From an uncultured Holophagales bacterium (GTDB taxonomy: Bacteria > Acidobacteriota > Thermoanaerobaculia > UBA5066): DNA of 37,601 nt. The notes beneath the pieces are model-generated. The model saw only the letters and a list, made by a program, of their open reading frames with translations, did not search any database and had not been told where the DNA came from. The position numbers and the translations under genes were made by a program. Below, piece after piece: positions 19,801-37,601 of this stretch (its first letter is position 1; every line of letters begins with the position of its first letter). Location of the stretch: contig CAZNSS010000001.1 in the NCBI GenBank assembly GCA_964575465.1, positions 1-37,601 of the forward strand, given 5' to 3'.

Positions 19801-22800
19801 CGACGACCTCCAGGTCCTGTCCCGCGTGGTCGAGGTGAATTTCGCCGAGTCGCCCGCCTCTGCCCGACGGGGCGTGGAAGACGTGGGCCGCGTAGGTCCC
19901 GAGCGACAGTGCCTGGAATGAAGCACGCCCGTCGGCCCCGGCGACGGTCGCCTCGCCATTCGAGAGGAAGACCTGTGCGTCGGGAACCGGAGCGCCGTTC
20001 TGCGGATCCCGAACGAGGACGGAGAGCGCCGCCACCTGCCCTGAAAGGACGAGGTCACCCACCTCGACGACATCGAAGTCGGCCTTCAGCTCCCCGGAGC
20101 GGCTCCCCAGCCGCGAAACCTGACCCGGGTCCCGCGCGACCACCGTGAACCTGCCGGCCGAGACGCCGCCCATCTCGAATCGCCCGTCACCGCCGGCCGT
20201 CAGGAAGGCGGGAGCCGCCGGGAACCGGCGGAAGGGGAAGTCGTTCTCCTGGAGAGCGACCTGTGCGCCCGACAGCGGGAGGAAGACCCCCGGCGCCGTC
20301 TCCTCGGCGACCCGGCCGCGGACGGTTCCCTGGGGCTTCAGGGAGACGACGAGATCGAGAAGCTGCCCGTGTCCGGTGATCCGGCCGTACGTCCGCCCCG
20401 TCCTCTGGATCGCGCCACGAAAGCCGCTCGCGGTGACGGCGACGTTCCCCGGCGGAACGAGCTCGAACCGGAAGGCGCCGAGTTCGTCCGTTCGCTGCCG
20501 CTGCGGAATGTAGCCCGTCGCTTCGAGGTCGACGTCGATGCCCGGGACGGGGGTGATCCCGTCGACGTCGACGACCAATCCCGCTACCGTCGAGGATCCC
20601 TCGAAGAGGAGATCGACCTCCTTCACCTGGCCAGCGAAGTCGATGGCCCCTCGGAACGATGCCGTTCCGTGGAAGGGGTTCGCTGCGGTGACGCTCAGCT
20701 CTCCGACCGGCAGCACCAGGGCCAGGCGGCCGTCGTCGTCGGTCGTCGTCTCGATTCCCGTGGACTTCTGCCGGATGACGAGCTCCTGAGGGCTGAACCA
20801 CGTCGGCCGGTAGACGAGGGGGCTCCTCACGCCCGCGGTCGTCGTCCTCGTTCTGACGCGCAAGGTGCCGGCACCCCGTAGCCGGACGGTCACAAAGGCG
20901 CGGTGGCCGCCGAAGAGGACCTCGGTCCCCGCCTCGCCAATCCAGCCGATCGCCCGGGGTTCGAGGCCAGCTCCGACGTGAGCAGCGACCGTGTACGCCC
21001 GCGCGGGGACGCCCTCGAACGAGAACGTGCCGTCGGCCCCCGTCGTCGTCTCGCCGATCGGGACGAGCGTGACCGTGACGCCGGGTGCCGGCCTCCCGAG
21101 CGGGTCGAGGACGACGCCGTCGATCGCACCTGGGGTCGCGCCGTCGAGGACGATCGTCGCGGCGGCGACCGGATCGGGCGACGCGTCCGTGACGGAAACG
21201 ACGGTCGTCCCCTCTGCCCGGCGAACCGAGTCGATCGCGTGGACCCGGTACGGGGCTTCTCCCACCCCCTGCGCCGGAACGCCGTCGATGCGGTAGTCGC
21301 CCGCGGCATCGGTCACCGCGAAGCTCCCCGGCCCCTCGACGAACACCGTCGCTCCCGAGGCCGGAACGTCGGCCTGTGCGAGCGGGTCGTGGAAGAGAAC
21401 CTTCCCCGCGACGGACCTCGGGCTCGACGCGGCGAGGATCAGGGTGGCGTCGGCCGAGCCCTCCGCGGCGAGGTCGACGTCGGCGATCGCCGCCGTCCTC
21501 GACCTCGTGAAATCGGCGGCCTGAAGTGTCACGCGCCCTGCAGGAACCCCTGTGAACCGGAACGTGCCAGCCGTGCCCGTCACCGCCTCGCCGTACGGCG
21601 CGCCGGCCGAGTAGACGGCAACGCGTGCACCGGCAACGGGCTCCGCCTGCGGCCCTGAGGCCGTCTCGCTGCGGAAGAGGACCCTCCCGGAGACCGTCCC
21701 GATACGAGGCGGCCGGGATCGCTCGAGTCGGAGCGTCGTCTCCACCTTCGCGCCCGGTCCGCCGAGGGCGACCGTTGCGGAAGCCGATCGACCCTCCGCA
21801 TCGCGGGCCGTCACGGTGATTGGACCGACGGGGAGGCCGTCCACCCGAAAACCGCCGTCGGCCCCGGCCTTCGCGGTGCGGACCTCGGAGAAGAGCGTGC
21901 TGGCCGCCGTCACTGCTGCCCCGATGGCGGCGCCGCCGTCGTCGTAGACCGCACGGCCTGTCAGAGTCCCGCGTCCGAGGAACGAGAGGTTGATCCGCGC
22001 CAGGCGCGACTGAAGGCGGATGATGGAAGAGACCTCCTCGATCTCCAGGGGAGCCAGCGGGTCCGGCCCGGGAGGGAGGACCGCCTGGATTCGGAAGCCC
22101 GATTGCACCGTCCCCTTCTCCGGCGGCCTCGGGACGGCCAGTACGGGCTCCTCGACGAACGGGAAGAAGAATGAGCCGTCGGCTCCGGTCGTCCGCTCGG
22201 CGACGAGGTCGTGCACGACTCGCGAATCCAGGCCCGAAGCGTCCGGGACGATCCTCTCCCGGACGAGACGAAGCGTCGCTCCTGCGACGGCCTGCCCCGT
22301 CCCCGCGAGCACCTTCCCCTCGACGAGGCCTCCGACGTGTCCGCTCTCGATCCGGATGTCCGGCACGGGGGACGCGAGCGCGTTGCCGTACCGGTCGCGA
22401 AGCACGCCGGCCGCGATCCGGTGGAGATTCGTGACGACCGGCTGCCCTTCGCGGGTCGCGATCACGGCCGAGACGGGTTGCGCGAAGCGGACTGTCAGGA
22501 CGCGCTCGCTCGACGGCTGCAGGAGGGCCGAGGCGGCGGTGAACGTCGCCGTTCGCTCGAGGGTCTCTCCCGAAGCCGTCGAGTCGAGCCCGCGGAAACG
22601 CGTCTCGACCTCGTATCGGTCCTCCTCCTCGGCATCCGCCTTCGCGGGCGGGCGATTGAAGAGGTACCAGACGCCGGAACCGTAGGGATCGAGGACGAAG
22701 TCCTGTCGCGCCCCGATCAGGCGGAAGGGTGGCAACTCGACCGCCCGGACGATGGCGGCGGGCGCCTCGGAGACCGGCATTCCCGTCGCGAGATGGACGA

Positions 22801-25225
22801 GCGCGAACGCGAGCGGCCGAAAGTCGCCCGCCGCGCGCGTGACCTCCACGGCCCAAGCCTCCCCCGGCGGGACCGAGAGAGACGGAAAGTCGACGACGAC
22901 GAACCCGCTCCCCGAGGGGGCCGGAGCCACGAACGAAAGCGTGACCGGCATGGGCGTACCGGAAGCAGGACCGTGGACAACGAAAGCGTAGGCAGCCTCG
23001 GCCGAGAGGCGCCCGACGACCGCGAGGGGCGAACGGCGGCCGCCGGCGCGCTCGAAGACGTCGAACACCTCTCCGAATGGAATCGAGCGGAGCGCCCGCG
23101 CGTCGCCGGCCGGGTAGGCGAGAAACGTGACGCCTGTGGCGCCGTTGAGCTTTCGGACCTCGAGGGTCGGCGCAGTCCCCGCGCCGGAGCTCTCGAGCGT
23201 CGCTGCGATCCAGGGCCTCGCCCAGGTCATCGCCGAAGCCGTGTCGGCGAGGAGAGACCTCGCCGTGAGGCCGCGTGCCTCCTGCTCCTGGCGGAGGAGG
23301 CTCGCGAGCGCCTCGGCGGCGTCTCGGCCCTTCGTCAGGGTCCGCCGGAGGGTGTCGTACTCGGGAAGGTCGTGTCGATTCCCGAGCTGGTCGAGGAGGA
23401 GCGCCTCGAGCGACGAGAGCAGCCCGTCGCCCAGGTAGAGCCGCTGACCCGCCTCGGCGAGGTCGACGGCCCGACGCTCGACGTCGGTCGTCACGAGCCG
23501 AGGCAGCTCCGGTGGGATCGACCCTGGCGGCGCCACGGCGAGGCTCCACGCGAGACCGAGCAGCCGGATGTTCGATCGGACGAGAGCCTCGGGAAGGAGC
23601 TCCGTGAATCGCGGGAGGACGAGTGACGAAGGAGACAGAGGGATCCCGGCCTCGCCGACGCCCGTCCGCAGCCGGATGACGCCTTCTGCCGGCCCCGCCG
23701 ACTGGAAGGTCGTCGCCACGCAGCGGCCCGTGACGTCGGCCACGAGCCGGTACTCGAACGTCGCACCCTCTCCCGGGGCGAGCGAGGGAATGGTGGGCGA
23801 GAAATCGTCTCCCGCGCGCTCCTTGTGAGCGCCGGTGATTCGGCTCGAATCGAGCTCGACCGTCACCAGGTACTGCGTGGCACGCGAGAGGTTCGTGACG
23901 GTGGCGTAGAGGGTGTAGGGCTCGCCCTCGCGGACGACGTCGGGGTGGTTGAAGGAGAGGTTGAAGCGGGCGTCGACGACCTCGACGGCGGCCTTGAGCT
24001 TCCCCGCGAGCGGCAGGACGTCCCGCCCGGGCCGCTCGAGGTCCGCTTCGATCGCCAGCGTGAAGACGTGCGTGCCGGGAACGAGCCCTTCAAGCGTGAA
24101 GCTCGCCGCCCCCTGCTCGCTGGGCCCGAGGCGCGCATTTCCTGTCGCGCCGAGGACCGGCACCTTCTGGCCGGCGGAGACCGGCGGCGTCGTCTGCGCG
24201 AGGCGCAGCAGCTCCCGCGGGACGGCCGCGGGCAGGCGAATCGCGCCCGTCACGTTCGCGAGCACGGCCGCGCTCCCCGTGGGAGCGCCGTTCACGACGA
24301 GGAGACTGGCGTCGAGGAACTGGTTGAGGAACGAGACCTTTCCGGGGAGGACGATGACACCGAACAGCTTCGTCTCGGCAGGAACCTCCTCGGGTTCGTA
24401 TCCCGGAGCGAGCTGGTCGGGCGCGGCCGCTTCCAGGCGGAACGGTATGAGGCTCGGGGGCTGCCATCGCCTCAACGCGGCAGCGACGTCTCCGGGAAGG
24501 CCGTCGAGCCGGACCTGCGGCTTCTCGAGGAGCTCGACCTGTGATCCCTCCTGGAAGAGGACCGGGAGCTCGATCGTGACGGGCGTGTCCCTGAAGACGA
24601 ACCCGACGTCGAAGCTGAAGGCCTGGAAGCTCTGCTGGGTAATCTCGATTCCCCTCGCTCTCAGCTCCTCCAGCGTCAGCTGCCGGACGGTCGCCGAAGC
24701 GAGGAGGATCTGTCGCACCTCGAGGACGACGGTGGAGGGACTCGCGTTGCCGAGGACCTCCCCGCCGCCGGCCCGGGCAAGCCGGATGTTCGAGAGGAGG
24801 TAGGTCCCCTCCGACTGGAAGCCAGGCAGGAGAAACGCGCCGCCCGGAACGGTGGAGTAGGTGATCGGCTGTGGCAGCTCCGGCCCCGAGAGATCACCTT
24901 GAACGACGAGACCCGAGGCGCGCGGATCGCCCGACGCCATGGCGCCGCAGACTCCCGCGAAACAGGTGCGGACCGTCGCCCCTTCGGCGACGTTCAGCGT
25001 TTGTTCCTCGTCGCCCGGAGCGATCGAGAGACGAGTGCCCTGAATGAGGAGCTTGTCGGAGGCGAGCGGCTCGGTCGGCTGGGCTGAAGCCCCGGCCGCT
25101 GGAACGAGCGCGCCGAGGGCGAGCAGAAGGAGAAGCGCATGGACGGATGCGAGCGGGCCTCGACGCCCCCTGGAATCCGCCCGCCGGCCGGTAACGGCCA
25201 GGGTGTCCCGCACTCTCCCCCGCAC
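7868..25225 (-). CDS. Giant exported protein, 5785 aa (Ig-like, CarboxypepD_reg-like, SbsA-Ig and Gly-rich beta-helix modules)
   Basis: A 17.36-kb uninterrupted ORF in the track. The N-terminus is ...RGRRGPLASVHALLLLLALGALVPAAGASA|QPTEP (signal peptide). It carries about 12 CarboxypepD_reg-like repeats and two SbsA-type Ig domains. It also has many Ig-like domains with the A-x-D-D-x-G/V-x-x-[VIL] motif (ATDDVQVSRIRIEVGG, ASDDQGVQRVEVFRDG, SVNDDGPVSRLDVALG) and four Gly-rich beta-helix modules. The start is GTG 25225. GTG 25213, preceded by GGGGGAGA, is equally possible. There is no in-frame ATG before the signal peptide. Confidence 0.93.
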   Translation of the reverse strand: MRGRVRDTLAVTGRRADSRGRRGPLASVHALLLLLALGALVPAAGASAQPTEPLASDKLLIQGTRLSIAPGDEEQTLNVAEGATVRTCFAGVCGAMASGDPRASGLVVQGDLSGPELPQPITYSTVPGGAFLLPGFQSEGTYLLSNIRLARAGGGEVLGNASPSTVVLEVRQILLASATVRQLTLEELRARGIEITQQSFQAFSFDVGFVFRDTPVTIELPVLFQEGSQVELLEKPQVRLDGLPGDVAAALRRWQPPSLIPFRLEAAAPDQLAPGYEPEEVPAETKLFGVIVLPGKVSFLNQFLDASLLVVNGAPTGSAAVLANVTGAIRLPAAVPRELLRLAQTTPPVSAGQKVPVLGATGNARLGPSEQGAASFTLEGLVPGTHVFTLAIEADLERPGRDVLPLAGKLKAAVEVVDARFNLSFNHPDVVREGEPYTLYATVTNLSRATQYLVTVELDSSRITGAHKERAGDDFSPTIPSLAPGEGATFEYRLVADVTGRCVATTFQSAGPAEGVIRLRTGVGEAGIPLSPSSLVLPRFTELLPEALVRSNIRLLGLAWSLAVAPPGSIPPELPRLVTTDVERRAVDLAEAGQRLYLGDGLLSSLEALLLDQLGNRHDLPEYDTLRRTLTKGRDAAEALASLLRQEQEARGLTARSLLADTASAMTWARPWIAATLESSGAGTAPTLEVRKLNGATGVTFLAYPAGDARALRSIPFGEVFDVFERAGGRRSPLAVVGRLSAEAAYAFVVHGPASGTPMPVTLSFVAPAPSGSGFVVVDFPSLSVPPGEAWAVEVTRAAGDFRPLAFALVHLATGMPVSEAPAAIVRAVELPPFRLIGARQDFVLDPYGSGVWYLFNRPPAKADAEEEDRYEVETRFRGLDSTASGETLERTATFTAASALLQPSSERVLTVRFAQPVSAVIATREGQPVVTNLHRIAAGVLRDRYGNALASPVPDIRIESGHVGGLVEGKVLAGTGQAVAGATLRLVRERIVPDASGLDSRVVHDLVAERTTGADGSFFFPFVEEPVLAVPRPPEKGTVQSGFRIQAVLPPGPDPLAPLEIEEVSSIIRLQSRLARINLSFLGRGTLTGRAVYDDGGAAIGAAVTAASTLFSEVRTAKAGADGGFRVDGLPVGPITVTARDAEGRSASATVALGGPGAKVETTLRLERSRPPRIGTVSGRVLFRSETASGPQAEPVAGARVAVYSAGAPYGEAVTGTAGTFRFTGVPAGRVTLQAADFTRSRTAAIADVDLAAEGSADATLILAASSPRSVAGKVLFHDPLAQADVPASGATVFVEGPGSFAVTDAAGDYRIDGVPAQGVGEAPYRVHAIDSVRRAEGTTVVSVTDASPDPVAAATIVLDGATPGAIDGVVLDPLGRPAPGVTVTLVPIGETTTGADGTFSFEGVPARAYTVAAHVGAGLEPRAIGWIGEAGTEVLFGGHRAFVTVRLRGAGTLRVRTRTTTAGVRSPLVYRPTWFSPQELVIRQKSTGIETTTDDDGRLALVLPVGELSVTAANPFHGTASFRGAIDFAGQVKEVDLLFEGSSTVAGLVVDVDGITPVPGIDVDLEATGYIPQRQRTDELGAFRFELVPPGNVAVTASGFRGAIQRTGRTYGRITGHGQLLDLVVSLKPQGTVRGRVAEETAPGVFLPLSGAQVALQENDFPFRRFPAAPAFLTAGGDGRFEMGGVSAGRFTVVARDPGQVSRLGSRSGELKADFDVVEVGDLVLSGQVAALSVLVRDPQNGAPVPDAQVFLSNGEATVAGADGRASFQALSLGTYAAHVFHAPSGRGGRLGEIHLDHAGQDLEVVVLLDQRGRVSGVLFDDATRTVPVGGGTVRLEGTVNGRLWGAGVTALASTSREPGSSGTFAFDGLPVATYALSAGVEGSDRQAGENVVLTPTAPEAQVALVLEPIRDVWVRLFSKEQSRGLVEVDPDPVRGDGVFAISYGRHVDIYSGEPIPLTSRLAPDVPYPGHAYRFRDVLASRSFWVRALESSGEQRRAFVTSSALASGTGASADPYRITLLARGTVRVAVRDAGGVAAGGANVRVHAPNGTWEGAADAAGRAVFTAVEEGQVSVSASVPGTPLGASISRTLRWDDEVLDVTLTLSPVVSAHGTVHEAPGGDAWSGDPASLPPAGGIFVRIRPSTGDEQLLVTSGDGAFRFSGLAAGPYTLEARSLDGERVATAAGTLGSAHGTDYALPPVVLDGSRPRIVSVTPPNGQSLVSRTAPVEIVFSEPLATAVLPSGPTSSTFRLSFSSAQATGTWSSSLDGAGRQVVRFTPSPRYENSTTYMLAMVGGSGGVRDREGRSLTDSGDVGSSFTTSDTDGPRVVATVPSLARPVDPEAQVRVDFGEILALTSAQLEAAVRFEWRNGAGTWADFPVATSLTRGGYSILVAQPQGVTFTDDSLRRRLVVTGLTDVAGNPMPEWVGEYRIYDRNAPVLSIDLPPNAPTGDLVAAARYELSPSFGNLDDVTPESAFGDLDRVEFSFASAAEPTQPEPVPSAIVRVAPFRYGFVAAYTGDGVAPRPFPVWARAFDTSGNASGVARLEMRVLPNAPPTIAGVTASASGPVVGVFYAGSTVSATAAGIADADDARLTLLAELRRGGPQGTILASAPARTLERPAGGWSALAPQVLSFTVPLTEAEGSTLSVVARVTDGKGATGVREATFAVADDAGTPVLSDLVARRPDGSTATSFVIGDSFVLEVRARDAETAIRSVAIATAGGVFPAALDAVRVATTDVFRTAAVTVPGSLTVPVTIGVTATADDHGGNQATRTTTLEAAPGSDPNRPVAEWLSPFEGALWPAGYISVDAGKSGVDLLLRVRITDSDVDAGGHTIPGSYVNVRVRGPVDATGSIAADSIPAVLLSGSAGEWVYEAAWRVPNGVPAGTSLPFEVEVVDAGANRMVRTATLVAVPARHVYESATTSIDSGSDVPMPEGAEALPVFLLDGSTLSLYPPAAGGERSFEGLHLYSGGTWSAGAESTVTVRRTILTSPEVTTRGSLVPFYPLELAIGGTLAIAHGAAIDVTGHGLLGGDGSRDPVVLPGERASAPGSAGSHGGRGHPVEGDWVTLLSAPGSVYGSVREPRLPGGGAGRAGASGGGVVRIDASSAIVRLFGDLAADGGPVPGGSSVGAAGGSVRLRAGRIEGRGSVHANGSFTVYGTSRPGGGGGRVAVSWGEPQSPGISVRAEGAPSPFYRYGEPNPTPLAGAGTVFLERLGAGGVPVDRGTLRISNPASTYPPAVTPLPGLGTAIVTAIDSASRTLTVRAADAAGSIEGESVVVTTLPAGDGSTTTAVFPVATEVRVSGSVGSPDQVLVLTVDAPAGDLDATAAALAAGGAVTAKARLRFAAFEATGAVRVSSGDELEVGGILNDRAALAIAADSRVLLGELPAVDFAGTVPAPGSAVAQAGAVDVRFRITDPLGISKVEETWSVTGSKSTRTFVEPTEVTSSPVPIHLVVPANQPPGPVTYAVRTIDRAGRISERTATWNVVGDVTPPVITAVDLSPMRPGDLYVAGDVVAITARATDDVQVSRIRIEVGGRTAESETSPATLVWIAPPAATASTFTITVTAMDLAGNARTASRSISVSPRADVVPPSVSIDCPSPGALLPSGYSSFRVQAAASDDQGVQRVEVFRDGDATPTAVVEASSGSTRTFETLTPGIVLPEVAEPTPVRLRVRAWDFGGNVSADSETEVTVVPAVPVSAAGPNDWQALETRTAFLASGTLVLDEPRTFAGLLVLRGASVAHSPGGARRLTLTVTGPLFVECGGSIDVTGRGYPEGGTYPGEVAPMGGGGSHVGTGGAYGGGVRGSTFGSVKEPQEAGGGGLGANGSSSGGGVVRIQAGTLSLGGPTASILANGSVDGWQAGGGGSIWITASSIQGNGLIEASSGGTVERGGGGAVAIEYGTATGTALTRANAKGGGGGLAGDNGGAGTVLLRGPGTAYGVLRIDNGGTTGQATVLPSLGSGTAQPGSSGATLVTDRGIAIPAFFKGHEVEVTRGGILLGTWRIATISDRTVTLEPGGAGPIALQAGDLWQGAYRFDAVEVAGASRLQSLDPIRTPSLGLAGPTASGGVTESLSPLNAETVSVAGRVQVSAITATDLTVKSGATLSHPSSTAAGIRDLDLKVSGTLTIEEGGSIDVTGRGYPADAAYPGAVLPLAGGGSHLGTGGAYEWGSRGTTYGSVGSPKEAGGGGRGANGSASGGGVVRIRSGTLAFGGTTASIISNGSAYGWQAGAGGSIWITTSSITGDGLIEAGGGGPGARGGGGAVALEYAGATGTALSRMNARGGGGGGVAAENGGAGTVFEKGPGATYGTLRVNNLGTTGQATVLPSLGSGTAQVGTSGVTLVTDRGTAIPAFFVGHRVEVSRGGALLGTWRIETIAGRTVMLEPNGAETIALQAGDLWQGVYQFDSVEVAGGAMLQSADPIRDAAPRIAITSPAPGASFASGSSIAVTYGAADDHPVVRVTLRLGGSTTDIPGPTATSGVVTAPWVSSTTSLLLEATVLDSTGQSASTSIPITVLAPPPMTVSIVEPASGAVLIGGTSEPVRLQLSDSRPLRKLTLALGAATSEFTGLAGPSFSVALPVPAVSSDEAGSLLATVEDASGATVSSAPVSMTLLADSNPRVTSSVNVPSPVGAGASVVVGFTGLFRDPTNARVQLRVTGAMNWEATATGPFPSAAPTGLSALATARPFSGSFPSFVIPRGARGAMTIDVTAIDGAGRSGPAVAIVREVVAPQNGPPTVTLLDPSPSGDTIVVAGETLPASVSVNDDGPVSRLDVALGASRSSVPNPSVGVRSVSVPVPAVAEDQVLPLTATAVDDQGLEGAADPAPVFVLTSASPRVGLILEPAGPYESGSSFLVSLEAVAVRGAATATLEVSGAMTFSETIAIAGSPKRYAGAFSPVTIPAGALGAATAVVRVTDEVGLYGLATLPLQIGVDHAPVASLSAPATASSGGTLELSLAASDDLGLRSARLSITGAFEYARLVTLGSPTSEVLDTTRTIRIPVPPDALGGAVVSVEVDDSNGAMAVAGPKSVSVVDGKPPAISRVRSPQSALVSGRGGIFAADVRDAGRIVEVRFLLDGTPFASLAVPARQGTFEAGIEPLPATTEPRPLVFRVEAVDAAGNSSWSERTFTLLPAGTPGVRLASPSAGALAIAGGTVALAAEVEHTREISQLRFFREGEATPFATLPGGERYAEYTIPTDATAGSAVGFRVEATDDLGRVGSASSSVRIVTGDLLEAGAVVDATDVSHDDRNVVVGGGEVVIRGHHRFASLVVLTNSFVHCDPGLDEPCEIDLEVSGDAYIAFRGSVGASGGGYLGGYQGPNITPVGRTLPGLPGSEAGAGGSYGGRGEAGSGAVPGPPYGNLRRPSLPGAGGGADGADRPGGSGGGVVQLRVGGQFVLDGEIDVEGGSGEGGGVGAGGSVSVEAGSIGGTGIVFAHGGTPWIRAGQGGSAGGGRIAFRGPLQDRVPGLAAASGPQWYSSGAAGTIFVSSPDDRDGHLILDSGWCEQPSPTELVAIGSGVVSSVAGRSIQAAGSQWRPGVEGRPVEVRRGGELVGRFLVDAVEVAARILTLDADADGQLLPGDTYVGVESFDSVTVGGRSRLATTDLLEGRLDVGSSAAIAAPNASVPPTDAAPTVSASIPTRNVSAGATIPVTVQARDDIGLDRIVLWLEWIDGTRIEVPVEGGATTFDRTLSFGVPAEPTTGEYYLGVGVFDSVGQWTSTLWRLIVASSSGLRATTPAVARPTSVSTGRSGARTGPRVRPTHPVFTPPAPAAPSAQRPFAIRLP
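8385..9460 (-). repeat. Gly-rich beta-helix plus small beta-barrel module, copy 4 of 4
   Basis: Key segments are HHRFASLVVLTNSFVHCDP...AGGSYGGRGEAGSG...PYGNLRRPSLPGAGGGADGADRPGGSGGGVVQLRVGG...GAGGSVSVEAGSIGGTGIVFAHGG...SAGGGRIAF. The module ends with GRPVEVRRGGELVGRFLVDAVEV...LLPGDTYVGVESFDSVTVGGRSRL. This parallels GHEVEVTRGGILLGTWRI...LQAGDLWQGAYRFDAVEVAGASRL of copies 2 and 3. Confidence 0.6.
11950..14157 (-). repeat. In-frame tandem duplication, period 1104 bp (368 codons): Gly-rich beta-helix module copies 2 and 3
   Basis: The string cgtcccgtcacgtcgatcga occurs at 12804 and at 13908, an offset of 1104. A 42-nt identical run, ctgcgccgtcccgctcccgaggctcggcaggaccgtcgcctg, occurs near 12218 and near 13325. 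The two protein copies align end to end with roughly three quarters identical residues by eye. Both contain GGSIDVTGRGYP, GGGSH.GTGGAY, SGGGVVRI, GWQAG.GGSIWIT, TGQATVLPSLGSGTAQ, LLGTWRI and ALQAGDLWQG.Y.FD.VEVAG. Confidence 0.85.
15120..16265 (-). repeat. Gly-rich beta-helix plus small beta-barrel module, copy 1 of 4
   Basis: Key segments are AIDVTGHGLLGG...GSAGSHGGRG...GSVYGSVREPRLPGGGAGRAGASGGGVVRIDASS...AAGGSVRLRAGRIEGRGSVHANG...GGGGGRVAVSWG. Core motifs are shared with copies 2-4. Boundaries are approximate. Confidence 0.6.
17900..18610 (-). other. Two SbsA-type (Big_5-like) Ig domains inside the 5785-aa CDS
   Basis: The first reads RPRIVSVTPPNGQSLVSRTAPVEIVFSEPLATAVLP...VRDREGRSLT. The second reads GPRVVATVPSLARPVDPEAQVRVDFGEIL...GLTDVAGNPMPEW. 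The P-x-[VI]-x-x-x-x-P...[VI]-x-[VI]-x-F-S-E-P[LM]...D-x-A-G-N signature is characteristic. Confidence 0.6.
18690..22330 (-). repeat. Array of about 12 CarboxypepD_reg-like beta-sandwich domains inside the 5785-aa CDS
   Basis: Repeats follow the pattern G-x-[VI]-x-G-x-V...G-A-x-V...T-D-x-x-G-x-F-x-[FL]-x-G-[VL]-P-x-G-x-Y-x-[VL]. Examples are GTVSGRVLF...GARVAVYS...TGTAGTFRFTGVPAGRVTLQA, GAIDGVVLDPLGRPAPGVTVTLVPIGETTTGADGTFSFEGVPARAYTVAA and GTVRGRVAEE...GAQVALQ...GGDGRFEMGGVSAGRFTVVA. Boundaries are approximate. Confidence 0.7.
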
Positions 25226-26025: not shown

Positions 26026-29000
26026 TCAGGGCACCGGCTGGCCCGCGACGAAGGTCGCGTCGAGCGACTTCCTGTCGATGACGGTCGCGTAGGCCCCGAC
26101 GCGGGCTCCGCCACGGGGGTTGTTGATGACGATCGACGCACGCTCCGCGTCGGTCGTCGTCAGCCCCGCGAAGAGATCGTCGCTGCCGATCTGCGTGACC
26201 GGCTTGTCGGCGGTGAGCCTGACCCAGATGCTCCGCAGCGGCCGTCCGAGGAAGTCGTAGACGTTGACGTCCACCTCGGCGCTGTCCCCGACGGCGGCGC
26301 CGGGGGTGAGGAAGAGCGCGACGTTCGTCCGGAACTCCGCGTTCGCCTCGAGGCCCGAGAGGAGGATTCGCTTCGACGCGGCCTGGACCCCGATGCCGTC
26401 TTCGAAGACGTAGGGATCGACCTGGAGGCCGCTCGTGCCGGACCCCGACACCGTGTAGGTCTTTCCCGTGACGATGAGCGGCTCCGTCGGGGCAGCGTCG
26501 TCGGCGGCCGGCGTGATATCGACGTAGGACGACACGTAGTCGTGCTCGTCGTCGTCCGGGAGGCCCAGCCAGACCTTGACGAAGTCGAGCGCGGCCGCGG
26601 TCTGCCACGGCTTGAAGACCACGGTGTCGCCCAGGGTCACGCGGGCCGTGGTCCCGCTCCGGACGTAGGAGTAGGTGACCTTGATCCGGCGCTCCTTCGA
26701 GGACGGGTTCGTGATGGCGATGTCGCTCTTCCAGGTCGCCGTCCGGACGATGCCGGGGAGGCGGTAGGTCGGCGACGGCCGCGGCGCGGGGGCGACGACG
26801 ATGGAGTCGTTCGTCGCCATGTCGATGACCGTCGCGTAGGGGTAGACGCCGGAGCCCTTCTTGATCTGGATCTCGGCCGAGAAGTGGGAGACCGGCGACC
26901 CGTAGCCCGCGCCGCCGATCGGCGAGTCGGGCGCGGCCGAGAGGGCCGAGTTGAGCTGCTTGACGCCCCGCGGCTCGACGAGGAGCTTCGCGGGGACGCC
27001 GAGGACGTTTCCGGCGGCGTCGCGGAAGACGACCTCGACCTGGGCTTCCTCGTCCTTGAGGTTCGCGACGGTGAGGTTCGTCCGGAACGCGTCGTCGTGC
27101 CGAAGGCCCGCCAGGACGTTCGCGCCCGCGACGGACTGCGGCTTCACGCCGTTGGCGACCGACATCGCCGGGACCGAGAGCCCGAACGTGCCGACGGTGT
27201 CGGCGAAGGCGGCGTTGTAGGTCCGGCTCACGATGACCGGGGAGACCGGGACGTTGTCGCCGCGGACGAGGACGACGCCCCAGGCGGGCCTGCTGAGCCG
27301 GAAGAGCGATTCGAGGACGTTCGTGTACGACTTCGTCTCGCCCGCGACGAGCGCCTGCTGCAGCCACGTGATCTTCGAGGCGCCGTCCCAGCTCGAGCCG
27401 GCGACGAAGCCGAGAGACACCGTGGCCGTCTGGCTGCCCGGGTTGAAGATGGAGAGGTCGGACTGCCACCGGGCTCCGCCCGCGCCGTCGGCGAACGCCA
27501 TGCCCGCGGCGACCCAGAGGAGCGGGTCGGGCGGCGGCTTCACCGTGAAGGCGAGCGGGGAGACGGTGGTCGCGGTACCGGGCACGCCGTCGCGCGCCAC
27601 GGTGAGCTTCACCGCGAAGGTGCCGCCGCGGGAGAAGGCGTAGTCCGTCGGGGAGCCGGTCGCGAGCGGCGAGCCGTCGCCGAAGTCCCACGTGTAGCTC
27701 GTCGCCTGATCGGCTCCGGTGAAGCGGATGAGCTTGTTCGGCTCGACGGCGGAGCGGTTGACGGCGGTGCCGTCCACGTAGAGGTAGTTGTACTTGCCCG
27801 TGAGGGGGGCGCCCGTGGAGCCGTGAACGAAGACGTTGTAGCTCTTCGAGTTCGCGCCGTTCGTCAGCTTCGCGACGAAGGTCGTGTCGACGGCGGCGGT
27901 GTAGGCCTTCTGCGCCACCGCGAGGTCGGAGAACGTGCCGTCGCCGAAGTCCCAGGAGAGCCCGCCTGCCGCCGCGATCGCGGTGAATTTCAGGAGCTGG
28001 CCCGAGGTGGCCTCCCAGGTGGTCGAGTCCTTCTTCGAGACGGCGGCTCCCGTGCCGGCGTCGGCCACGGAGTAGTCGAGGAAGGACTGGCCGCTGGACG
28101 GGGCGATGCTGATGCTCGCCGTCGCGTTGCAGCCCGTGGACGCGAGGGTCACGGTGTACTGCTGCGAGGCCGAGCCGGGGAGGGTGTAGGCGTAGACGTA
28201 GTTGTTGCCCGTGCCCGACGCGCCGTTCCCGAAGTTCCAGCTGATCGTCCCGGTCGCGCCGGTCGCCACGAAGGTGAGGGGCTGCCCGCTCGTCGCCTCG
28301 TAGATCTTGTAGACCGGGTCGTAGGAGATCCTCGCTCCCTCCGAGTTCTTGATGTCCAGGCTGCAGCTCGCCGGGAGGTCTCCGCCGGTGACCGTGAGCT
28401 GGTTCACGCGGGTGGAGCTCGACTGGAAGGACGCATCGTTGGCGACGCACGAGAAGGTCTTGGTGCCCGCGGTGGCGTAGGAATAGCTCGTCGTCCGCGA
28501 GGTCGTGGTGCGCGTCACGCCGTAGTCGAGCGTCCAGTCGTACGACGTGATGGCGGCTCCGCCCGAGGTCGCGTTGCAGGTGAAGGTCACGCTCTGCCCC
28601 GTGATCGGGGTGTAGTTGGACGCCGTCACCGAGGTCACGGTCGGCGGGCCGCCCGTGCTGCCGCCTCCGCCACCGCTTCCGCCACCGCCTCCGGTGGCGG
28701 TGCCGACGATGAGCTTCGCCGGCTGCGGATCGATTCCGTAGCCGGTGAGGGTGATCTCGTAGTCACCCGCCGTCGGGATCGAGAACGTCTGGCCCTGCGC
28801 CGTCCCCATCGCCGTCGCCGACCCGCCGCTCTGGGGCCTGTAGGACCAGCTGAGCGCGGGCGGGTTCGAGTCCTGCACGCCGTTGATGTAGGCGTAGGCC
28901 CGCGCCTGCACGCTCGCGGTGAGGTCGTAGGTGCCGTTGAACGACGGGAGGTCCGCCGTGTTGGCCAGGTTCCTCAGGCGAATCGTCGGCGTCGCGGCGA

Positions 29001-31479: not shown

Positions 31480-31561
31480 TCAACCCCCTTGGAAGGCACC
31501 CCAATATTCAGAACCTCGCGGCCCGAGAGCGGGCCACGCGGCGAAAGAGTCAACCGGGGCC

Positions 31562-31667: not shown

Positions 31668-31704
31668 AGAGAAAGAAAAAGAGCGGGCGGCTTTCGCCGC
31701 CCGC
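31668..31704 (-). terminator. Rho-independent terminator of the 503-aa gene
   Basis: The minus strand reads GCGGGCGGC-GAAA-GCCGCCCGC, a 9-bp GC stem (31704-31683), followed by TCTTTTTCTTTCTCT. It lies 27 nt after the TAA stop. Confidence 0.85.
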
Positions 31705-31730
31705 CCAGGGTTGATCTACCGAAGGATCGC

Positions 31731-33242
31731 TTACTCGGCGACGCCGCCGAAGGCGATGTTGCCCGGATCAGCGAAAACGCCCGTGCAGTTGAAATCGTGG
31801 TTGAACAGCGTGGCGGCGTGGCCGACGCTGACGAACGCGCCCGGAGCGGTGTGCTGCACACCGACCCAAGCCTGGTGGTAGCGGTCGCTGTTGTTCGGGT
31901 TGAACGTGAAGCGCGTCCAGCCGCCCTTGAAGCCGGCCGGGTTCATGTCCGCGTTGCCGGAGATGATCACGCGGTTGGCTTCCCACCACACGTACGGGTT
32001 GTTCGAGACCTGGACGTCGCCCGACGGGCCGCCGCCGGTCTGCTCGTTCTGGTTCTCGTCGTTGTCCCAGGTGGAGATGGAGATCTGACGGCCGTTGCGA
32101 GCGATGTCGCAGAGGTTCACGCCAACGTTCGTGTGAACGGTGGTCGCGTTGTCGGCGTCCCAGCGGTCGCCGCGCCAGATGGTCGCCCAGGTCTGGAGGC
32201 CGGCGTCCGCGTCGCTCAGGTAGCGGAAGCCGTAGGCCGTGCCGAGGGGCTCGCGGCCGTCGCCGGAGAACTGGTAGGCGGCCGGGACGTCGGCGTCAGC
32301 GGCCGGGACCGGGTCGATGTAGTTCGCGCCCTGGGTGCTGTAGCGCGCGTAGAAGGTCTTGAGGGTCGAGGTCGTCCAGTCGTTGGCGGGGGACTCGAGG
32401 CGAACGTCGAACTCGAGAGCGATGGCCGCCTCACCGGAGATGTTGCCACCGGCGTTGGACGGGTCGATGAAGAACACGTCGCCCATGAGGACGTTCGTGC
32501 CGCCGTTGTCGTCCCAGCCGACCGTCGCGATGGCGTCGAGCGTGTAGAACTGGTACTGGTTCGGGAAGTAGTTGGTGCAGTAGTTGACGACGTCGATCGT
32601 CAGGTAGCCGGTGAAGTCGCCCGCGAAGGCGCCGTCAGCCGTGCCGCCGCAAGCGGCGTTGTCGGCCTCGTTGGTCGGGCGCGTGATGAGGGAGATGTAG
32701 TCGGCGCTCTGGTCGAGGGAGTCCCAGATACGGTTGCGGAAGTTCCCGCCGAAGGCCGGGGTGGCGTAGAACCCGATCGAGTCGAAGTAGTCGCCGTTCG
32801 GGGCCTCGGGGTGCAGGAAGCGCATGTAGTCGGACTGGTCTTCACCGATGAACGCTGCGTTCTTGCAGGGGTCGGTGCCGGCAGCCGAGAGCTTCTGCGT
32901 GTTCGGGTTGACGTTCAGCTTGCCGTTGAGGATGTCCTTCATGCGGAAGAACGCAACGTCGTAGCCCGTCATCGGAACGTTGAAGTCGAGGACGGGGGCG
33001 GACTGCTTGTTCCACACGGTGACGTGGGCAACGATGCCGAACTCGGAGACGTTCGTCAGGGCGACGAGCGTGTCCGTGCCGCCCTCGGGGATCTCCCCGG
33101 AGGTGGCGGAGTTGCGGGAAACCTTGAAATACGGCACGAGAAGCGTAGCGCCCGGGACGTTGTCATACGCGCACGTCACGGCGTAGCTCGTCCCCGTCGC
33201 CGCGAGGAGCGCGAGGGCAACCAAAACAGTAAACTTCTTCAT
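31731..33242 (-). CDS. Secreted 503-aa protein of unknown family; probably very highly expressed
   Basis: The track ORF 31731..33248 starts at GTG. I prefer ATG 33242, which has AGGAG 5 nt upstream. The product begins MKKFTVLVALALLAATGTSYA|VTCAYDNVPG (signal peptide). It is rich in N/D/F/Y/T/W and poor in A/R compared with its neighbours, with 6 Cys. Codons are strongly C-ending (AAC, GAC, TTC, TAC, ATC). Ser is mostly TCC, against TCG in the neighbours. The stop is TAA and the first codons are AT-rich. The gene has its own promoter and terminator. Confidence 0.9.
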   Translation of the reverse strand: MKKFTVLVALALLAATGTSYAVTCAYDNVPGATLLVPYFKVSRNSATSGEIPEGGTDTLVALTNVSEFGIVAHVTVWNKQSAPVLDFNVPMTGYDVAFFRMKDILNGKLNVNPNTQKLSAAGTDPCKNAAFIGEDQSDYMRFLHPEAPNGDYFDSIGFYATPAFGGNFRNRIWDSLDQSADYISLITRPTNEADNAACGGTADGAFAGDFTGYLTIDVVNYCTNYFPNQYQFYTLDAIATVGWDDNGGTNVLMGDVFFIDPSNAGGNISGEAAIALEFDVRLESPANDWTTSTLKTFYARYSTQGANYIDPVPAADADVPAAYQFSGDGREPLGTAYGFRYLSDADAGLQTWATIWRGDRWDADNATTVHTNVGVNLCDIARNGRQISISTWDNDENQNEQTGGGPSGDVQVSNNPYVWWEANRVIISGNADMNPAGFKGGWTRFTFNPNNSDRYHQAWVGVQHTAPGAFVSVGHAATLFNHDFNCTGVFADPGNIAFGGVAE

Positions 33243-33434
33243 TTCCACTCCTGCTGATTCGATGTGAAAGATGGGGCTGAAACGACGAGGCTGAGGGTTG
33301 GACTCTCCCCCGATATCGAATCACCTCCCGTGAGTTCGATGGTCTTCATCCCGAATTCGAACCCCGCGGCCTTCGGCCCTTCCTGGCGAGACGAAGCGCG
33401 GGAAAAGCTGTGTGCACTCATGTGACTTGGGGGA

Positions 33435-33463
33435 AGGTTAGGGGCGCTATTCGGAAAAGTCAA
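33435..33463 (-). promoter_or_regulatory. Sigma70-like promoter of the 503-aa gene
   Basis: The minus strand reads TTGACT (33463-33458), N17, TAACCT (33440-33435). It sits in a locally AT-richer intergenic region. The predicted leader is about 185 nt. Confidence 0.5.
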
Positions 33464-33533
33464 GCGCGGAGACCACGAAATATGCTCCGGTCCCATATTT
33501 CTTCAGGCGCCCCCTTCACGGCCCGGCGACCCC

Positions 33534-35356: not shown

Positions 35357-36124
35357 TCAGAGGATGTCGGCGAAGACCCTTCGGCTCCGCTCGAAGAACC
35401 TGTACCCGAGAAATGCTAGCACGCCGGAAGCGACCATCCAGAGGCCGACCCGCGCCGCGGGAGGCGCCGCCGTTCCGATGAGTCCGGCGCGGAAGAGCGC
35501 GACGAGGTCCCTGAGCGGGTTCACGTCCATGACCCAGCCCAGCGAGGGAGGGACGAGGGTCTCGGGGTAGAGGATGGGCGACAGGTAGAAGACGACCGTC
35601 AGCAGGGGTGGAAGCAGCTGGGCGAGGTCCCGAAACAGCACGCTGGCAGCCGCCAAAGCAAGCGCCGGGCCAATCAGGAGGAGGAGCTCGAAAGCGAATC
35701 CCGCCGCGATCGGGAGGAGCCGGAGGTGGCCCGCCCCGAACACCCCCGAGAAGCCGGCGAAGACGACGAGTCCCGCCGTCTGGAGGACGAGCGCCGACGT
35801 CAGGCTGGCCCCCACGAGAAGGGCCACCGGAAACGACATCTTCTTGACGAGGTGGGCCTGCTCGACGATCGAGCCTGCCCCGCGGACCAGGCCGTCCTGG
35901 AGGCCCAGCCACGGGAGGAGGCCTGCGAGCAGGAATTCGGCGTAAGTCCCGCGGAAGTCCTCGGGTGGCGCGATCCGGACGATGACCGCGAAAACGAGGG
36001 TATAGAGGCCGCACAGGATGAGTGGATTCAGGAGCGCCCAGGCCGCGCCGCCCACGCTCCCGGCGTACCGGACCGAAAGGTCGCGCCGGACGAGCTCGGA
36101 AAGGAGGAAGAGGCGTCGTCTCAA
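35357..36124 (-). CDS. ABC-2 type (Wzm/TagG/KpsM-like) transporter permease, 255 aa
   Basis: The N-terminal signature is LVRRDLSVRYAGSVGGAAWALLNPLILCGLYTLVF, followed by about 6 hydrophobic spans and VKKMSFPVALL. This is typical of polysaccharide or teichoic-acid ABC-2 exporter permeases. The start is TTG 36124, the first start codon after an in-frame stop, with no clear SD. No ATPase gene is adjacent. Confidence 0.85.
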   Translation of the reverse strand: MRRRLFLLSELVRRDLSVRYAGSVGGAAWALLNPLILCGLYTLVFAVIVRIAPPEDFRGTYAEFLLAGLLPWLGLQDGLVRGAGSIVEQAHLVKKMSFPVALLVGASLTSALVLQTAGLVVFAGFSGVFGAGHLRLLPIAAGFAFELLLLIGPALALAAASVLFRDLAQLLPPLLTVVFYLSPILYPETLVPPSLGWVMDVNPLRDLVALFRAGLIGTAAPPAARVGLWMVASGVLAFLGYRFFERSRRVFADIL

Positions 36125-36161
36125 GAGGGGACCGGCGGGCCGTCGGAACGGGAGGATTCAC

Positions 36162-36189
36162 TTGACAGAAACACGGGAGAGCCTAACCT
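36162..36189 (+). promoter_or_regulatory. Sigma70-like promoter for the XRE regulator in the divergent intergenic region
   Basis: TTGACA (36162-36167), N16, TAACCT (36184-36189), 20 nt before ATG 36209. The -10 hexamer is the same as in the 503-aa gene promoter. The leader would be very short. Confidence 0.5.
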
Positions 36190-36208
36190 TAGCTTCGGGT
36201 CCGTGTCG

Positions 36209-36691
36209 ATGAGTGCCTCCGTGCGCCCTTCGCAGATTATCGTGGTGGGTCAAAAGATCCGTCAAATCCGGAAGAGCCGTCGGCTGACCCAGGCCGACCT
36301 CGCCGGGCGGATCGGCGTGACCCAGTCGGACCTCTCCCGGATGGAGAACGGCGAGTACAAGGTCGGCCTCGACACGCTCTTCCGGATCCTCCAGGTCTTC
36401 GAGCTTTCGATGAGCCGGTTCTTCGAGGAGACGGCCTCCGAGCCCGCCGAAATCGAGGAAGCGCCGGCCACCGACCCCGCCACGGAGACGCAGATGCTCC
36501 TCGCCGACTTCGAGGAGCTCGATGAGGACTCGCGCCGCGACGTCCGCGATTTCATCGCCTTCAAGAAGATCCAGCAGCAGAACCGGCAGCCGCGCTGGCG
36601 GCCCGAAGAGGCCCCCGCGGCGCCCGAGCCGCCCGCGGCCACGCCGCTGATCCCGTTCGGACGGCCCACCGGCCCCGGCAGGCCCGAGTGA
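36209..36691 (+). CDS. XRE-family (Cro/C1-type HTH) transcriptional regulator, 160 aa
   Basis: This is the internal ATG of track ORF 35726..36691. The HTH_3 signature is VGQKIRQIRKSRRLTQADLAGRIGVTQSDLSRMENGEYKVGLDTLFRILQVFELSMSRFF. It has an acidic, then Pro-rich C-terminal tail. Confidence 0.85.
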   Translation: MSASVRPSQIIVVGQKIRQIRKSRRLTQADLAGRIGVTQSDLSRMENGEYKVGLDTLFRILQVFELSMSRFFEETASEPAEIEEAPATDPATETQMLLADFEELDEDSRRDVRDFIAFKKIQQQNRQPRWRPEEAPAAPEPPAATPLIPFGRPTGPGRPE

Positions 36692-36703
36692 GGAATTAGA
36701 GAG

Positions 36704-37601
36704 ATGGAAGTTTCTCAGGTCGAGACCGCCACTCTCCGCAGCCGCGCCGAAGGGCTGCGCTCGGAGGCGGTCGGGTTCCTCGAGAAGGGCGAGTTCGCCT
36801 CCTCGCTGGCGCTCTACGACGAGTCGCTCGAGACGGCCCGCCTCACGGGCGACGCCTCCTTCGTCGACTGGATCTACTCCTGCCGCGCCGCGGCGGCGGC
36901 GGAGGCCGGCCCCGCGGAAGGCGAGCTCGTCGAGCTCAAGCGGATCCTGCTCCGCGGGCGCGAAGACCAGACCGCTTTCCGCGCGGCGTACACCGCTGCG
37001 CGCATCTACGAGCTGAAGCGGGACTTCAAGAAGGCCACGTTCTACGCGCGCCTCGCCCGGCAGCACGCCGCCGAAATCGGCGATCCTCTCCTCCTCGCCG
37101 GCGCCGAGAGCACCCAGGGGACCCTCCTCGCGGTCGACAGCCGGTTCGAGGAGGCCGCGGAATGCTACCGGCGCGCGCTCGAGGTCTCGGCCCCGCCGGC
37201 GCGCGTCTCGGCCCTCTTCCGCGCGCTCTGGCAGGACAACCTCGGGTACTGCCTCATCGCTCTCGACCGGACGGCCGAGGGTCTGCCCCTCGTCCACGAC
37301 GCCCTCGAGACGATCGAGAAGGCCGGGGCGAAGGCCCACACCGTCTTCCCGCTCATGGACCTCTGCTTCGGCTACCTGAAGGGCGACCGCTACGAGGAAG
37401 CGCGCTACTTCGGGGAGGCGTGCCTCGAGCGCGCGCCCCTCTCCGGCGACGACTCCGTCGAGCGGAACGTCCTCTACCTCCTCGGCGAGGCGAGCCACCT
37501 CGGCGGTGACGAGGACGCCGCCCGCGAGTACTTCGACCGCCTCGCTTCCCTCTACCCCGACTTCCGGAACCTCAGGGCCTACCTCGAGGTCTTCGACTTC
37601 C
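36704..37601 (+). CDS. TPR-like helical-repeat protein, N-terminal 299 codons (runs off the right edge)
   Basis: Not in the track because it has no stop. The start is ATG 36704, 12 nt after the XRE stop, preceded by AGGAATTAGAGAG. I checked every triplet to 37600 and found no stop, with high GC3. Repeated helical-hairpin motifs include LALYDESLETARLTGD, YTAARIYELKRDFKKATFYARLA, FEEAAECYRRALEV and GDRYEEARYFGEACLE. Confidence 0.75.
   Translation, partial: MEVSQVETATLRSRAEGLRSEAVGFLEKGEFASSLALYDESLETARLTGDASFVDWIYSCRAAAAAEAGPAEGELVELKRILLRGREDQTAFRAAYTAARIYELKRDFKKATFYARLARQHAAEIGDPLLLAGAESTQGTLLAVDSRFEEAAECYRRALEVSAPPARVSALFRALWQDNLGYCLIALDRTAEGLPLVHDALETIEKAGAKAHTVFPLMDLCFGYLKGDRYEEARYFGEACLERAPLSGDDSVERNVLYLLGEASHLGGDEDAAREYFDRLASLYPDFRNLRAYLEVFDF

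Follow-up and report, generated by a model that had tools for sequence, protein, structure and literature searches.

A secreted protein of a conserved glycan-export locus as a probable major envelope protein of Thermoanaerobaculia

The window analysed here is a 37,601-nt stretch of DNA from an uncultured Holophagales bacterium of the class Thermoanaerobaculia (assembly GCA_964575465.1, contig CAZNSS010000001.1), and the gene under study, referred to below as the target, lies on its minus strand within 31668-33463, all positions being those of the whole window. Judged from its sequence and its surroundings, the target is most likely a major secreted envelope protein of Thermoanaerobaculia. More specifically, the combination of expression signals, Sec export, an acidic disulfide-containing beta-sandwich as predicted, genetic linkage and a position between wzm and wzt leads us to favour an abundant, acidic, disulfide-bonded, S-layer-like surface-coat protein tied to an exported glycan, with a probability of roughly 0.45. 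We thus infer that the protein is abundant, is exported beyond the periplasm, associates with the glycan and forms a lattice or coat, and that a conserved box in the mRNA leader has a role in its expression. The first-pass annotation of this DNA had proposed an abundant envelope or extracellular structural protein; the expression signals, predicted secretion, the wzm/wzt setting and fusions to surface modules lend this proposal partial support. Members of the Thermoanaerobaculia occur widely in soil, peat, sediment and wastewater sludge; to our knowledge almost none have been cultured, and we know of nothing on their cell envelope. A search of the literature for an S-layer or proteome of Thermoanaerobaculia, or for the target accessions, found nothing relevant.

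The target proved to be a self-contained unit, the expression hallmarks of which are kept in about 50 species-level orthologous loci. Its promoter, TTGAC and TAnnnT at a 17-nt spacing, was invariant or nearly so in 24 aligned species, and the same pattern was present in almost all of 49 species-level loci. A generic consensus scanner missed it, the -10 hexamer TAACCT agreeing with the consensus at 3/6 positions. The ribosome-binding region, GYAGGAGWRAAA-ATG-AAR-AAR, was essentially invariant among orthologs. At the other end of the unit, the terminator, with an 11-bp stem containing 10 G-C pairs, a GAAA loop and a T-run, was the strongest in the 12.6 kb scanned, and 38/41 orthologous loci have a close counterpart of it, capped by a UUCG, GAAA or GCAA tetraloop. 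Thus the features read from the sequence in the first-pass annotation, namely a TTGACT-N17-TAACCT promoter of the gene's own, a leader of ~185 nt (~186 nt by the distance from -10 to ATG, with an inferred transcription start site, TSS), an AGGAG Shine-Dalgarno (SD) sequence at 33252-33248 and a strong terminator, were all borne out and, moreover, are conserved.

The coding sequence (CDS) carries equally distinct signals. Its G+C content (GC) is 65.3%, against 70-72% in the neighbouring genes, and the values for the three codon positions (GC1/GC2/GC3 = 0.57/0.46/0.93) confine this dip to positions 1 and 2, which therefore reflects amino-acid composition, as had been suggested at the outset, and not foreign DNA. 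Horizontal transfer as the cause of the low GC was also ruled out by an equal dip in orthologs that lie in strict synteny. Third positions are C in 66% of codons (47-56% in the neighbours), and the effective number of codons (Nc) is 27.8, the lowest in the window, where 36.5 would be expected from GC at synonymous third positions (GC3s). In comparison with the neighbours, GGC (84% vs 46%), CGC (88% vs 34%) and TCC (58% vs 26%) are strongly preferred, AGG, CGG, CGA and GGA are not used at all, and GCT and GTT are enriched. Across loci, Nc was lower in the target than in the other three syntenic genes in 43/48 cases, and the Nc deficit of the target was the largest in 39/48. Codons 2-11 have a GC3 of 0.71, compared with 0.93 in the remainder, and the signal peptide, with its AT-rich codons, is conserved above the protein average (top-residue frequency 0.84 vs 0.64), which suggests a nucleotide-level constraint on the start of the CDS. 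The C-ending codon bias with its preference for TCC, the TAA stop and the AT-rich first codons noted in the first-pass annotation were thus confirmed, and the hallmarks of very high expression that it had listed are all present and conserved class-wide.

It could be argued that such hallmarks mislead, the bias stemming from amino-acid composition in a gene of ordinary expression and the low GC from horizontal acquisition, and the -10 hexamer is indeed weak by the E. coli consensus. However, Nc is calculated within synonymous families and falls far below the GC3s expectation; the promoter is conserved across species despite its weak -10; bias, promoter, SD, leader box and terminator are kept together across about 50 species; and GC3 equals that of the neighbours, while strict class-wide synteny argues against a recent transfer. 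We consider this explanation very improbable. The conserved promoter, leader, SD, codon bias and terminator therefore indicate a monocistronic unit built for high output throughout the lineage.

Upstream of the promoter, the palindrome TATG-N9-CATA is centred ~61 nt before the inferred TSS and is a candidate for an activator site or an UP-like element. It has one match in the window against 0.01 expected. It was found in 54/69 loci, always at the target promoter and once in each, leaving aside the match of the palindrome to itself on the reverse strand in the organism of the window. A regulon search found neither the palindrome nor the leader box elsewhere within +/-10 kb of any locus. Regulators of the XRE-type helix-turn-helix, AsnC and AraC types are all encoded in the vicinity.

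The 5' leader contains, ~86 nt before the main ATG, a box, GGAGGTGAT, which is invariant across species and forms a 9-nt perfect complement to the canonical 16S rRNA 3' tail (the host's own 16S lies outside the window), with which it would be expected to pair. The box is followed by TTCGnT and then by ATCG, the ATC of which lies 72 nt before the main ATG and shares its frame. This ATC was in frame in 42/49 species, at distances from the ATG of 69, 72, 84, 90, 93, 96, 99 or 111 nt, which are all multiples of 3. Downstream of the box, frame 0 was open in 46/49 species, compared with 12 and 7 for the other two frames, and a TGA inside the box shuts frame 0 upstream. In the two most distant syntenic loci (L065:5420-5498 and L068:1126-1235), the box instead reads GGAGGTGATGGC, the ATG of which starts upstream open reading frames (uORFs) of 20 and 29 codons whose TGA stop overlaps the main SD and lies 13-14 nt ahead of the main ATG. 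Common to both arrangements is that the part of the leader between the box and the main ribosome-binding site stays open to translation, which suggests that the leader is actually translated, with real upstream initiation. A conserved leader peptide was considered and rejected, as the peptide is not conserved and substitutions lack clear 3-periodicity, only the frame and its openness being kept. On the hypothesis that an in-frame extension is lost together with the signal peptide, it would be explained why the frame alone is conserved. A riboswitch or structured RNA was likewise rejected, since no Rfam family was matched and RNAalifold gave neither a consensus structure nor covariation. The unlinked paralog at L036:9980-11686 keeps the proximal ribosome-binding site, GGTAGGAGTAAAAATGAAGAAG; the GGAGGTGA box was absent from the ~380 nt read upstream of it, and box and palindrome were unmatched anywhere in that locus. 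The full control region thus appears to be specific to the syntenic copy. The coordinates of these elements and of the neighbouring genes are collected in Table 1. A 543-aa plus-strand open reading frame (ORF) over the target DNA was dismissed as a high-GC shadow.

Table 1. Coordinates in the window of the target gene, its control elements and the syntenic neighbours
Feature	Position	Strand	Remarks
Target CDS	31731..33242	-	ATG start, 503-aa precursor, TAA stop
Signal peptide MKKFTVLVALALLAATGTSYA, 21 aa	33180..33242	-	cleavage site inferred from sequence
Palindrome TATG-N9-CATA, 17 bp, then A/T tract	33481..33497	-	invariant in 24 aligned species
-35 hexamer TTGACT	33458..33463	-	TTGAC invariant across species
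-10 hexamer TAACCT, conserved as TAnnnT	33435..33440	-	17-nt spacer from -35
5' leader, ~186 nt	33243..33428	-	from -10-to-ATG distance; TSS inferred
Leader box GGAGGTGAT + TTCGnT + ATC	33312..33328	-	invariant across species
Shine-Dalgarno AGGAG, 5 nt before ATG	33248..33252	-	invariant in all orthologs
Intrinsic terminator GGGCGGGCGGC-GAAA-GCCGCCCGC + T-run	31671..31706	-	38/41 loci, stable tetraloops
Wzm-like ABC-2 permease	35357..36124	-	PF01061; syntenic in almost all loci
FG-GAP repeat protein, putative lipoprotein, 585 aa	33534..35291	-	PF13517 + PF01839; synteny
Secreted PKD-domain protein, 1817 aa	26026..31479	-	own terminator 25971-25950

The N-terminus of the precursor, MKKFTVLVALALLAATGTSYA followed by VTCAYDNVP, contains an Ala-X-Ala-type site and, judged by eye, reads as a Sec-type signal peptide cleaved between Ala21 and Val22. 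The mature protein, of 482 aa and 52.1 kDa with a pI of 4.3, is rich in Ala, Gly, Asn, Asp and Thr and poor in Lys and Met. The six Cys residues counted in the first-pass annotation were all found, and all are invariant in 42 homologs. Its C-terminus, ...GGVAE, is not of the outer-membrane protein (OMP) type, as had also been stated, and no OMP family was matched. Among 42 close homologs 78 columns are invariant, and the polar residues D27, N64, H73, D95, D217, N250, D255, E277, D328, R330, E331, R340 and D393 persist when mean identity has dropped to 25%. Along the sequence, conserved stretches of the beta-core are interspersed with hypervariable ones, read as variable loops, and insertion hot spots in the family follow residues 128, 306, 380 and 451.

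The description of the protein as an orphan could not be upheld, except in the sense that it belongs to no named family. A word-indexed search returned 301 homologs at E<=1e-3, the best 120 of which are ~500 aa long, share 43-82% identity with the target, have source-given names that are all 'hypothetical', and bear few organism labels, all of them Holophagales, Thermoanaerobaculia or Acidobacteria metagenome-assembled genomes (MAGs). When a profile was run exhaustively against 1.84 billion cluster representatives, 1367 matched at E<=1e-3, 177 of them at E<=1e-30. A scan of species-representative genomes located 55 target loci, nearly all in MAGs labelled Thermoanaerobaculia or Acidobacteriota, in keeping with a phyletic distribution centred on this class; three oddly labelled bins among them, on contigs of <9 kb, are probably binning errors. 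Neither Pfam and NCBIfam (E<=10) nor sequence searches of the PDB with the target produced a match, and the same was true of a Pfam scan of 42 diverse family members and a PDB search with their profile. The target is thus a new class-wide family without a Pfam entry or a known structural relative, and the earlier statement that no family could be recognised holds for Pfam, NCBIfam, PDB and Foldseek searches alike, none of which yielded a known family or fold. Copies broken by premature stops or frameshifts, either orthologs or paralogs, were seen in L052, L053, L055, L057, L060 and L061, which are MFD-labelled MAG contigs; these could be assembly errors or pseudogenes.

Structure prediction, which the first-pass annotation had named as a check, gave two AlphaFold2 models from different alignments that agree in secondary structure, are mostly beta, and have a predicted local distance difference test (pLDDT) score of 76 and predicted template modelling (pTM) scores of 0.83 and 0.85. 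As modelled, the target would be an elaborated beta-sandwich in a single compact domain. Foldseek searches of both models against the PDB, and of the first model against BFVD, found no neighbour at E<1e-3, so that no known fold was matched. A reproducible local similarity was seen to the sandwiches of TM1070 and of the Anabaena sensory rhodopsin transducer (ASRT) (PDB 1nc7 and 2ii8; probabilities 0.97-0.99 and 0.57-0.80), part of both models superposing on these ~115-aa structures with template modelling (TM) scores of 0.67-0.74, normalised to the small PDB structure. The E values, however, were 0.03-0.4 (0.03-0.08 for 1nc7, in spite of its probability), identity was 4-7%, and under a quarter of the protein takes part in the match, which contains large insertions. 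No Pfam match to ASRT and no sequence-level relationship to it was found in the target. Weaker local similarity was seen to the lectin domain of FedF (probability 0.69), and jelly-roll capsid matches were disregarded on account of their low probability. The target was judged, from the family and PDB searches and the secondary structure of the models, not to be an outer-membrane beta-barrel or porin: no OMP family and no barrel in the PDB was matched, and the models hold helices as well as strands.

The gene order surrounding the target is highly conserved. A wzm permease gene, the FG-GAP gene, the target and a gene for a ~1800-aa PKD protein were found in this order at essentially every locus with enough flank, and the order persists in relatives at ~31-33% identity; L036, L061 and L064 are the only unlinked paralogs. 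The FG-GAP protein, which from its ...LVASGC motif appears to be a lipoprotein, and the PKD protein, both remarked upon as neighbours in the first-pass annotation, are therefore constant companions of the target. Across 42 loci, Wzm had a median identity of 55% to its counterpart in the window, the FG-GAP protein 45%, the target 47% and the PKD protein 33%. At 24 loci, scattered among clades less closely related to the organism of the window, genes for Wzt (ABC_tran and Wzt_C) and for GT4 and GT2 glycosyltransferases come immediately after the PKD gene; this places the three exported proteins within a wzm...wzt glycan-export operon.

Several proteins join the target-type domain to other surface modules: it is fused to PKD repeats in P0196 and P0227, to a lipase-like domain in P0177, and, in a 1368-aa paralog at L064:7305-11408, to PKD-like repeats and also to the module that forms the C-terminus of the PKD neighbour (hhalign probability 99.8%; BLASTP E 3e-9). 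The last fusion reads as a Rosetta-stone-type link between the two adjacent genes. P0196 and P0227 were considered as orthologs of the PKD neighbour and rejected, as only their PKD repeats match it. The module itself, the C-terminal ~500 aa of the neighbour (26026-27528, minus strand), is a conserved triple repeat of the form G..W.SD..I.NP... for which neither Pfam nor the PDB gave a relative. A shared '...I.NPS...V.V.' motif had raised the possibility that the target is homologous to the PKD neighbour, and this was rejected: hhalign gave a probability of 0.3% for the close-homolog profile against the whole neighbour and of 0.5% for the diverse-family profile against the profile of its C-terminal module, and the family hidden Markov model (HMM) recognised the target only among all the window proteins.

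Elsewhere in the window, two giant ORFs (7868-25225, minus strand, 5785 aa; and 1-7470, minus strand, at least 2490 aa and running off the window edge) with CarboxypepD_reg, Big_5, Big_7, Big_13 and Glucodextran_B repeats look like adhesins from their sequence. A 446-aa ORF at 36158-37498 on the minus strand was discounted as a shadow of opposite-strand genes. Between the target terminator and the PKD gene there is a sub-threshold Rfam match to CRISPR-DR29 (31506-31542, minus strand; 22.8 bits vs a gathering score of 39; E 0.09), in a single copy without an array, which is probably due to chance.

The same expression and synteny evidence would also suit an abundant extracellular matrix, lectin or fibre protein that forms no cell-covering lattice, binds the exported polysaccharide and, with the FG-GAP and PKD proteins as partners, builds the matrix of a biofilm or floc. 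The predicted compact single-domain fold, whose similarities are local only and to sandwiches of a sugar-binding type, agrees with such a function, as do the source habitats (activated sludge, soil and peat) and the giant Ig-like adhesins that the window's clade adds downstream. In Vibrio cholerae, genes for matrix proteins (rbm) lie between the vps polysaccharide clusters, and RbmC and Bap1 carry beta-propeller domains. Expression signals that look constitutive and maximal are, however, more typical of envelope components. The evidence here does not separate matrix from surface coat; we regard a matrix protein as a possible but doubtful assignment.

A secreted or periplasmic enzyme or processing factor that modifies, trims or ligates the glycan exported by Wzm/Wzt is unlikely. 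The target does lie within a glycan operon, but an enzyme of such a pathway is rarely equipped there with a maximal promoter, leader, codon bias and terminator of its own, and the fusions described above are to PKD and adhesin-type modules. The conservation of the target, comparable to that of the FG-GAP protein and above that of the PKD protein, and its many polar residues invariant at low overall identity would be in line with catalysis, yet no similarity to an enzyme family or fold was found.

The assignment as an S-layer-like surface coat also has to be weighed against several observations. In the window's own clade, wzt and the glycosyltransferase genes are no longer adjacent, that part of the locus being replaced by a gene for an AraC-type regulator and giant Ig-like repeat proteins. 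No SLH, T9SS CTD or PEP-CTERM domain or lipobox was found in the target with Pfam and NCBIfam, and no anchoring module (SLH, CWB2 or T9SS CTD) was found in the target or in 42 diverse family members; we know of no general model for the N-terminal domains by which diderm S-layer proteins bind lipopolysaccharide (LPS). No dedicated outer-membrane secretion genes adjoin the target, unlike in Aeromonas. The protein appears from its models to be a single compact domain and not a typical multi-domain S-layer protein. Median identity across the class is 47%, and many of the invariant columns are polar; such high conservation and six Cys are atypical of classical S-layer proteins and would fit an enzyme or lectin equally well. 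Beside this, wzm in the window's clade has no adjoining gene for the Wzt ATPase; either the ATPase gene was relocated to another genomic site, or wzm stands orphaned in this clade.

For a surface-coat protein, the following route can be envisaged. Transcription would start from the conserved sigma-70-type promoter, possibly aided by the upstream A/T-rich palindrome as an activator site or UP-like element. The leader box would load ribosomes, which would keep the leader under translation, or at least occupied, as far as the main ribosome-binding site; this may stabilise the target mRNA or boost its expression. The perfect SD, AT-rich first codons and near-optimal codons would then give a high rate of translation, and the strong hairpin terminator would close the transcript. 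The precursor would be exported by Sec and cut after Ala21. Once folded, the mature protein would be a compact 52-kDa beta-sandwich, acidic and held by three disulfides, and at the cell surface it would join the O-polysaccharide-type glycan, the FG-GAP lipoprotein and the PKD giant.

A more far-reaching version, which we think improbable, would have the target as the lattice or coat protein of the whole class, with a fold unrepresented in the PDB, held by the Wzm/Wzt O-polysaccharide and the FG-GAP and PKD proteins, and with a leader device of a kind not described before, the anti-16S box, that launches translation at an AUC in frame with the main start or, in the distant lineages, at a uORF coupled to the main SD. 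If this were true, a variable N-terminal extension would be removed with the signal peptide, and two ribosome entry sites would yield one mature product.

The target would probably be the most heavily expressed envelope component of Thermoanaerobaculia, and its family, 1367 clusters at 50% identity, constitutes a large superfamily without a Pfam entry or structural relative. The target would offer a candidate major surface antigen, possibly a phage receptor, and a marker for the lineage, while its promoter, leader and terminator could serve as a strong native cassette for a high-GC phylum. The leader box and the in-frame translatable leader provide a compact, testable case of unusual translational control.

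The nearest precedent for the leader is the STAB-SD of cry3A in Bacillus thuringiensis, an SD-like site thought to bind 30S subunits and protect the mRNA (Agaisse & Lereclus 1996, as cited in PMC12970973 and PMC7509114). It too is an SD-like sequence deep in a long 5' untranslated region (UTR), at -125 as compared with about -86 here, and belongs to a massively expressed gene; an SD-like sequence remote from the start codon is likewise present in the target leader. In contrast, the complementarity of the target box is perfect over 9 nt, and after the box comes an open stretch in the main frame or, in the distant lineages, a uORF running onto the main SD. This suggests that the leader is translated rather than serving for ribosome parking alone, and the box occurs in another phylum.

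With regard to the gene as a whole, a strong promoter, a 5' UTR with a stabilising effect and a biased choice of codons are typical of S-layer genes (PMC3666127), which in Gram-positive bacteria are monocistronic and lie near wzm/wzt slg clusters (PMC2943079). The target resembles Gram-positive S-layer genes such as sgsE of Geobacillus stearothermophilus (PMC2943079), and the expression signals of slpA of Lactobacillus (PMC3666127), in its monocistronic layout close to wzm/wzt and glycosyltransferase genes and in a strong promoter, long 5' UTR, biased codons and strong terminator. Its signal peptide, pI, conserved expression signals and low Nc would also suit an S-layer protein. It differs, however, in belonging to an organism assumed to be diderm, in having no SLH or other cell-wall-binding domain, and in its six invariant Cys and a class-wide conservation far better than that of typical S-layer proteins. 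No O-oligosaccharyltransferase was identified at the target locus.

The closest parallel is found in a diderm. In Aeromonas salmonicida, wzm and wzt of the O-antigen ABC-2 cluster flank the S-layer genes, which begin immediately downstream of wzm, and LPS tethers the ~49-kDa A-protein (PMC4483657). As with vapA, the target encodes a ~50-kDa Sec-dependent protein and lies between wzm and wzt, wzt being displaced in the window's own clade. No family match linking the target to VapA was obtained from Pfam or the PDB, the VapA sequence itself not having been compared. Furthermore, Aeromonas has dedicated type II secretion system (T2SS; sps) genes where the target is accompanied by an FG-GAP lipoprotein, a PKD giant, regulators and glycosyltransferases, and the Aeromonas protein is the major surface array tethered by glycan, a location and tethering that for the target are predicted. 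The locus offers a testable parallel to the S-layer genes inside the O-antigen exporter operon of Aeromonas. In its functional kind, a main protein of the surface or envelope encoded where a glycan is exported, the target would be familiar; its family is new, and the leader would be an unusual and testable translational device.

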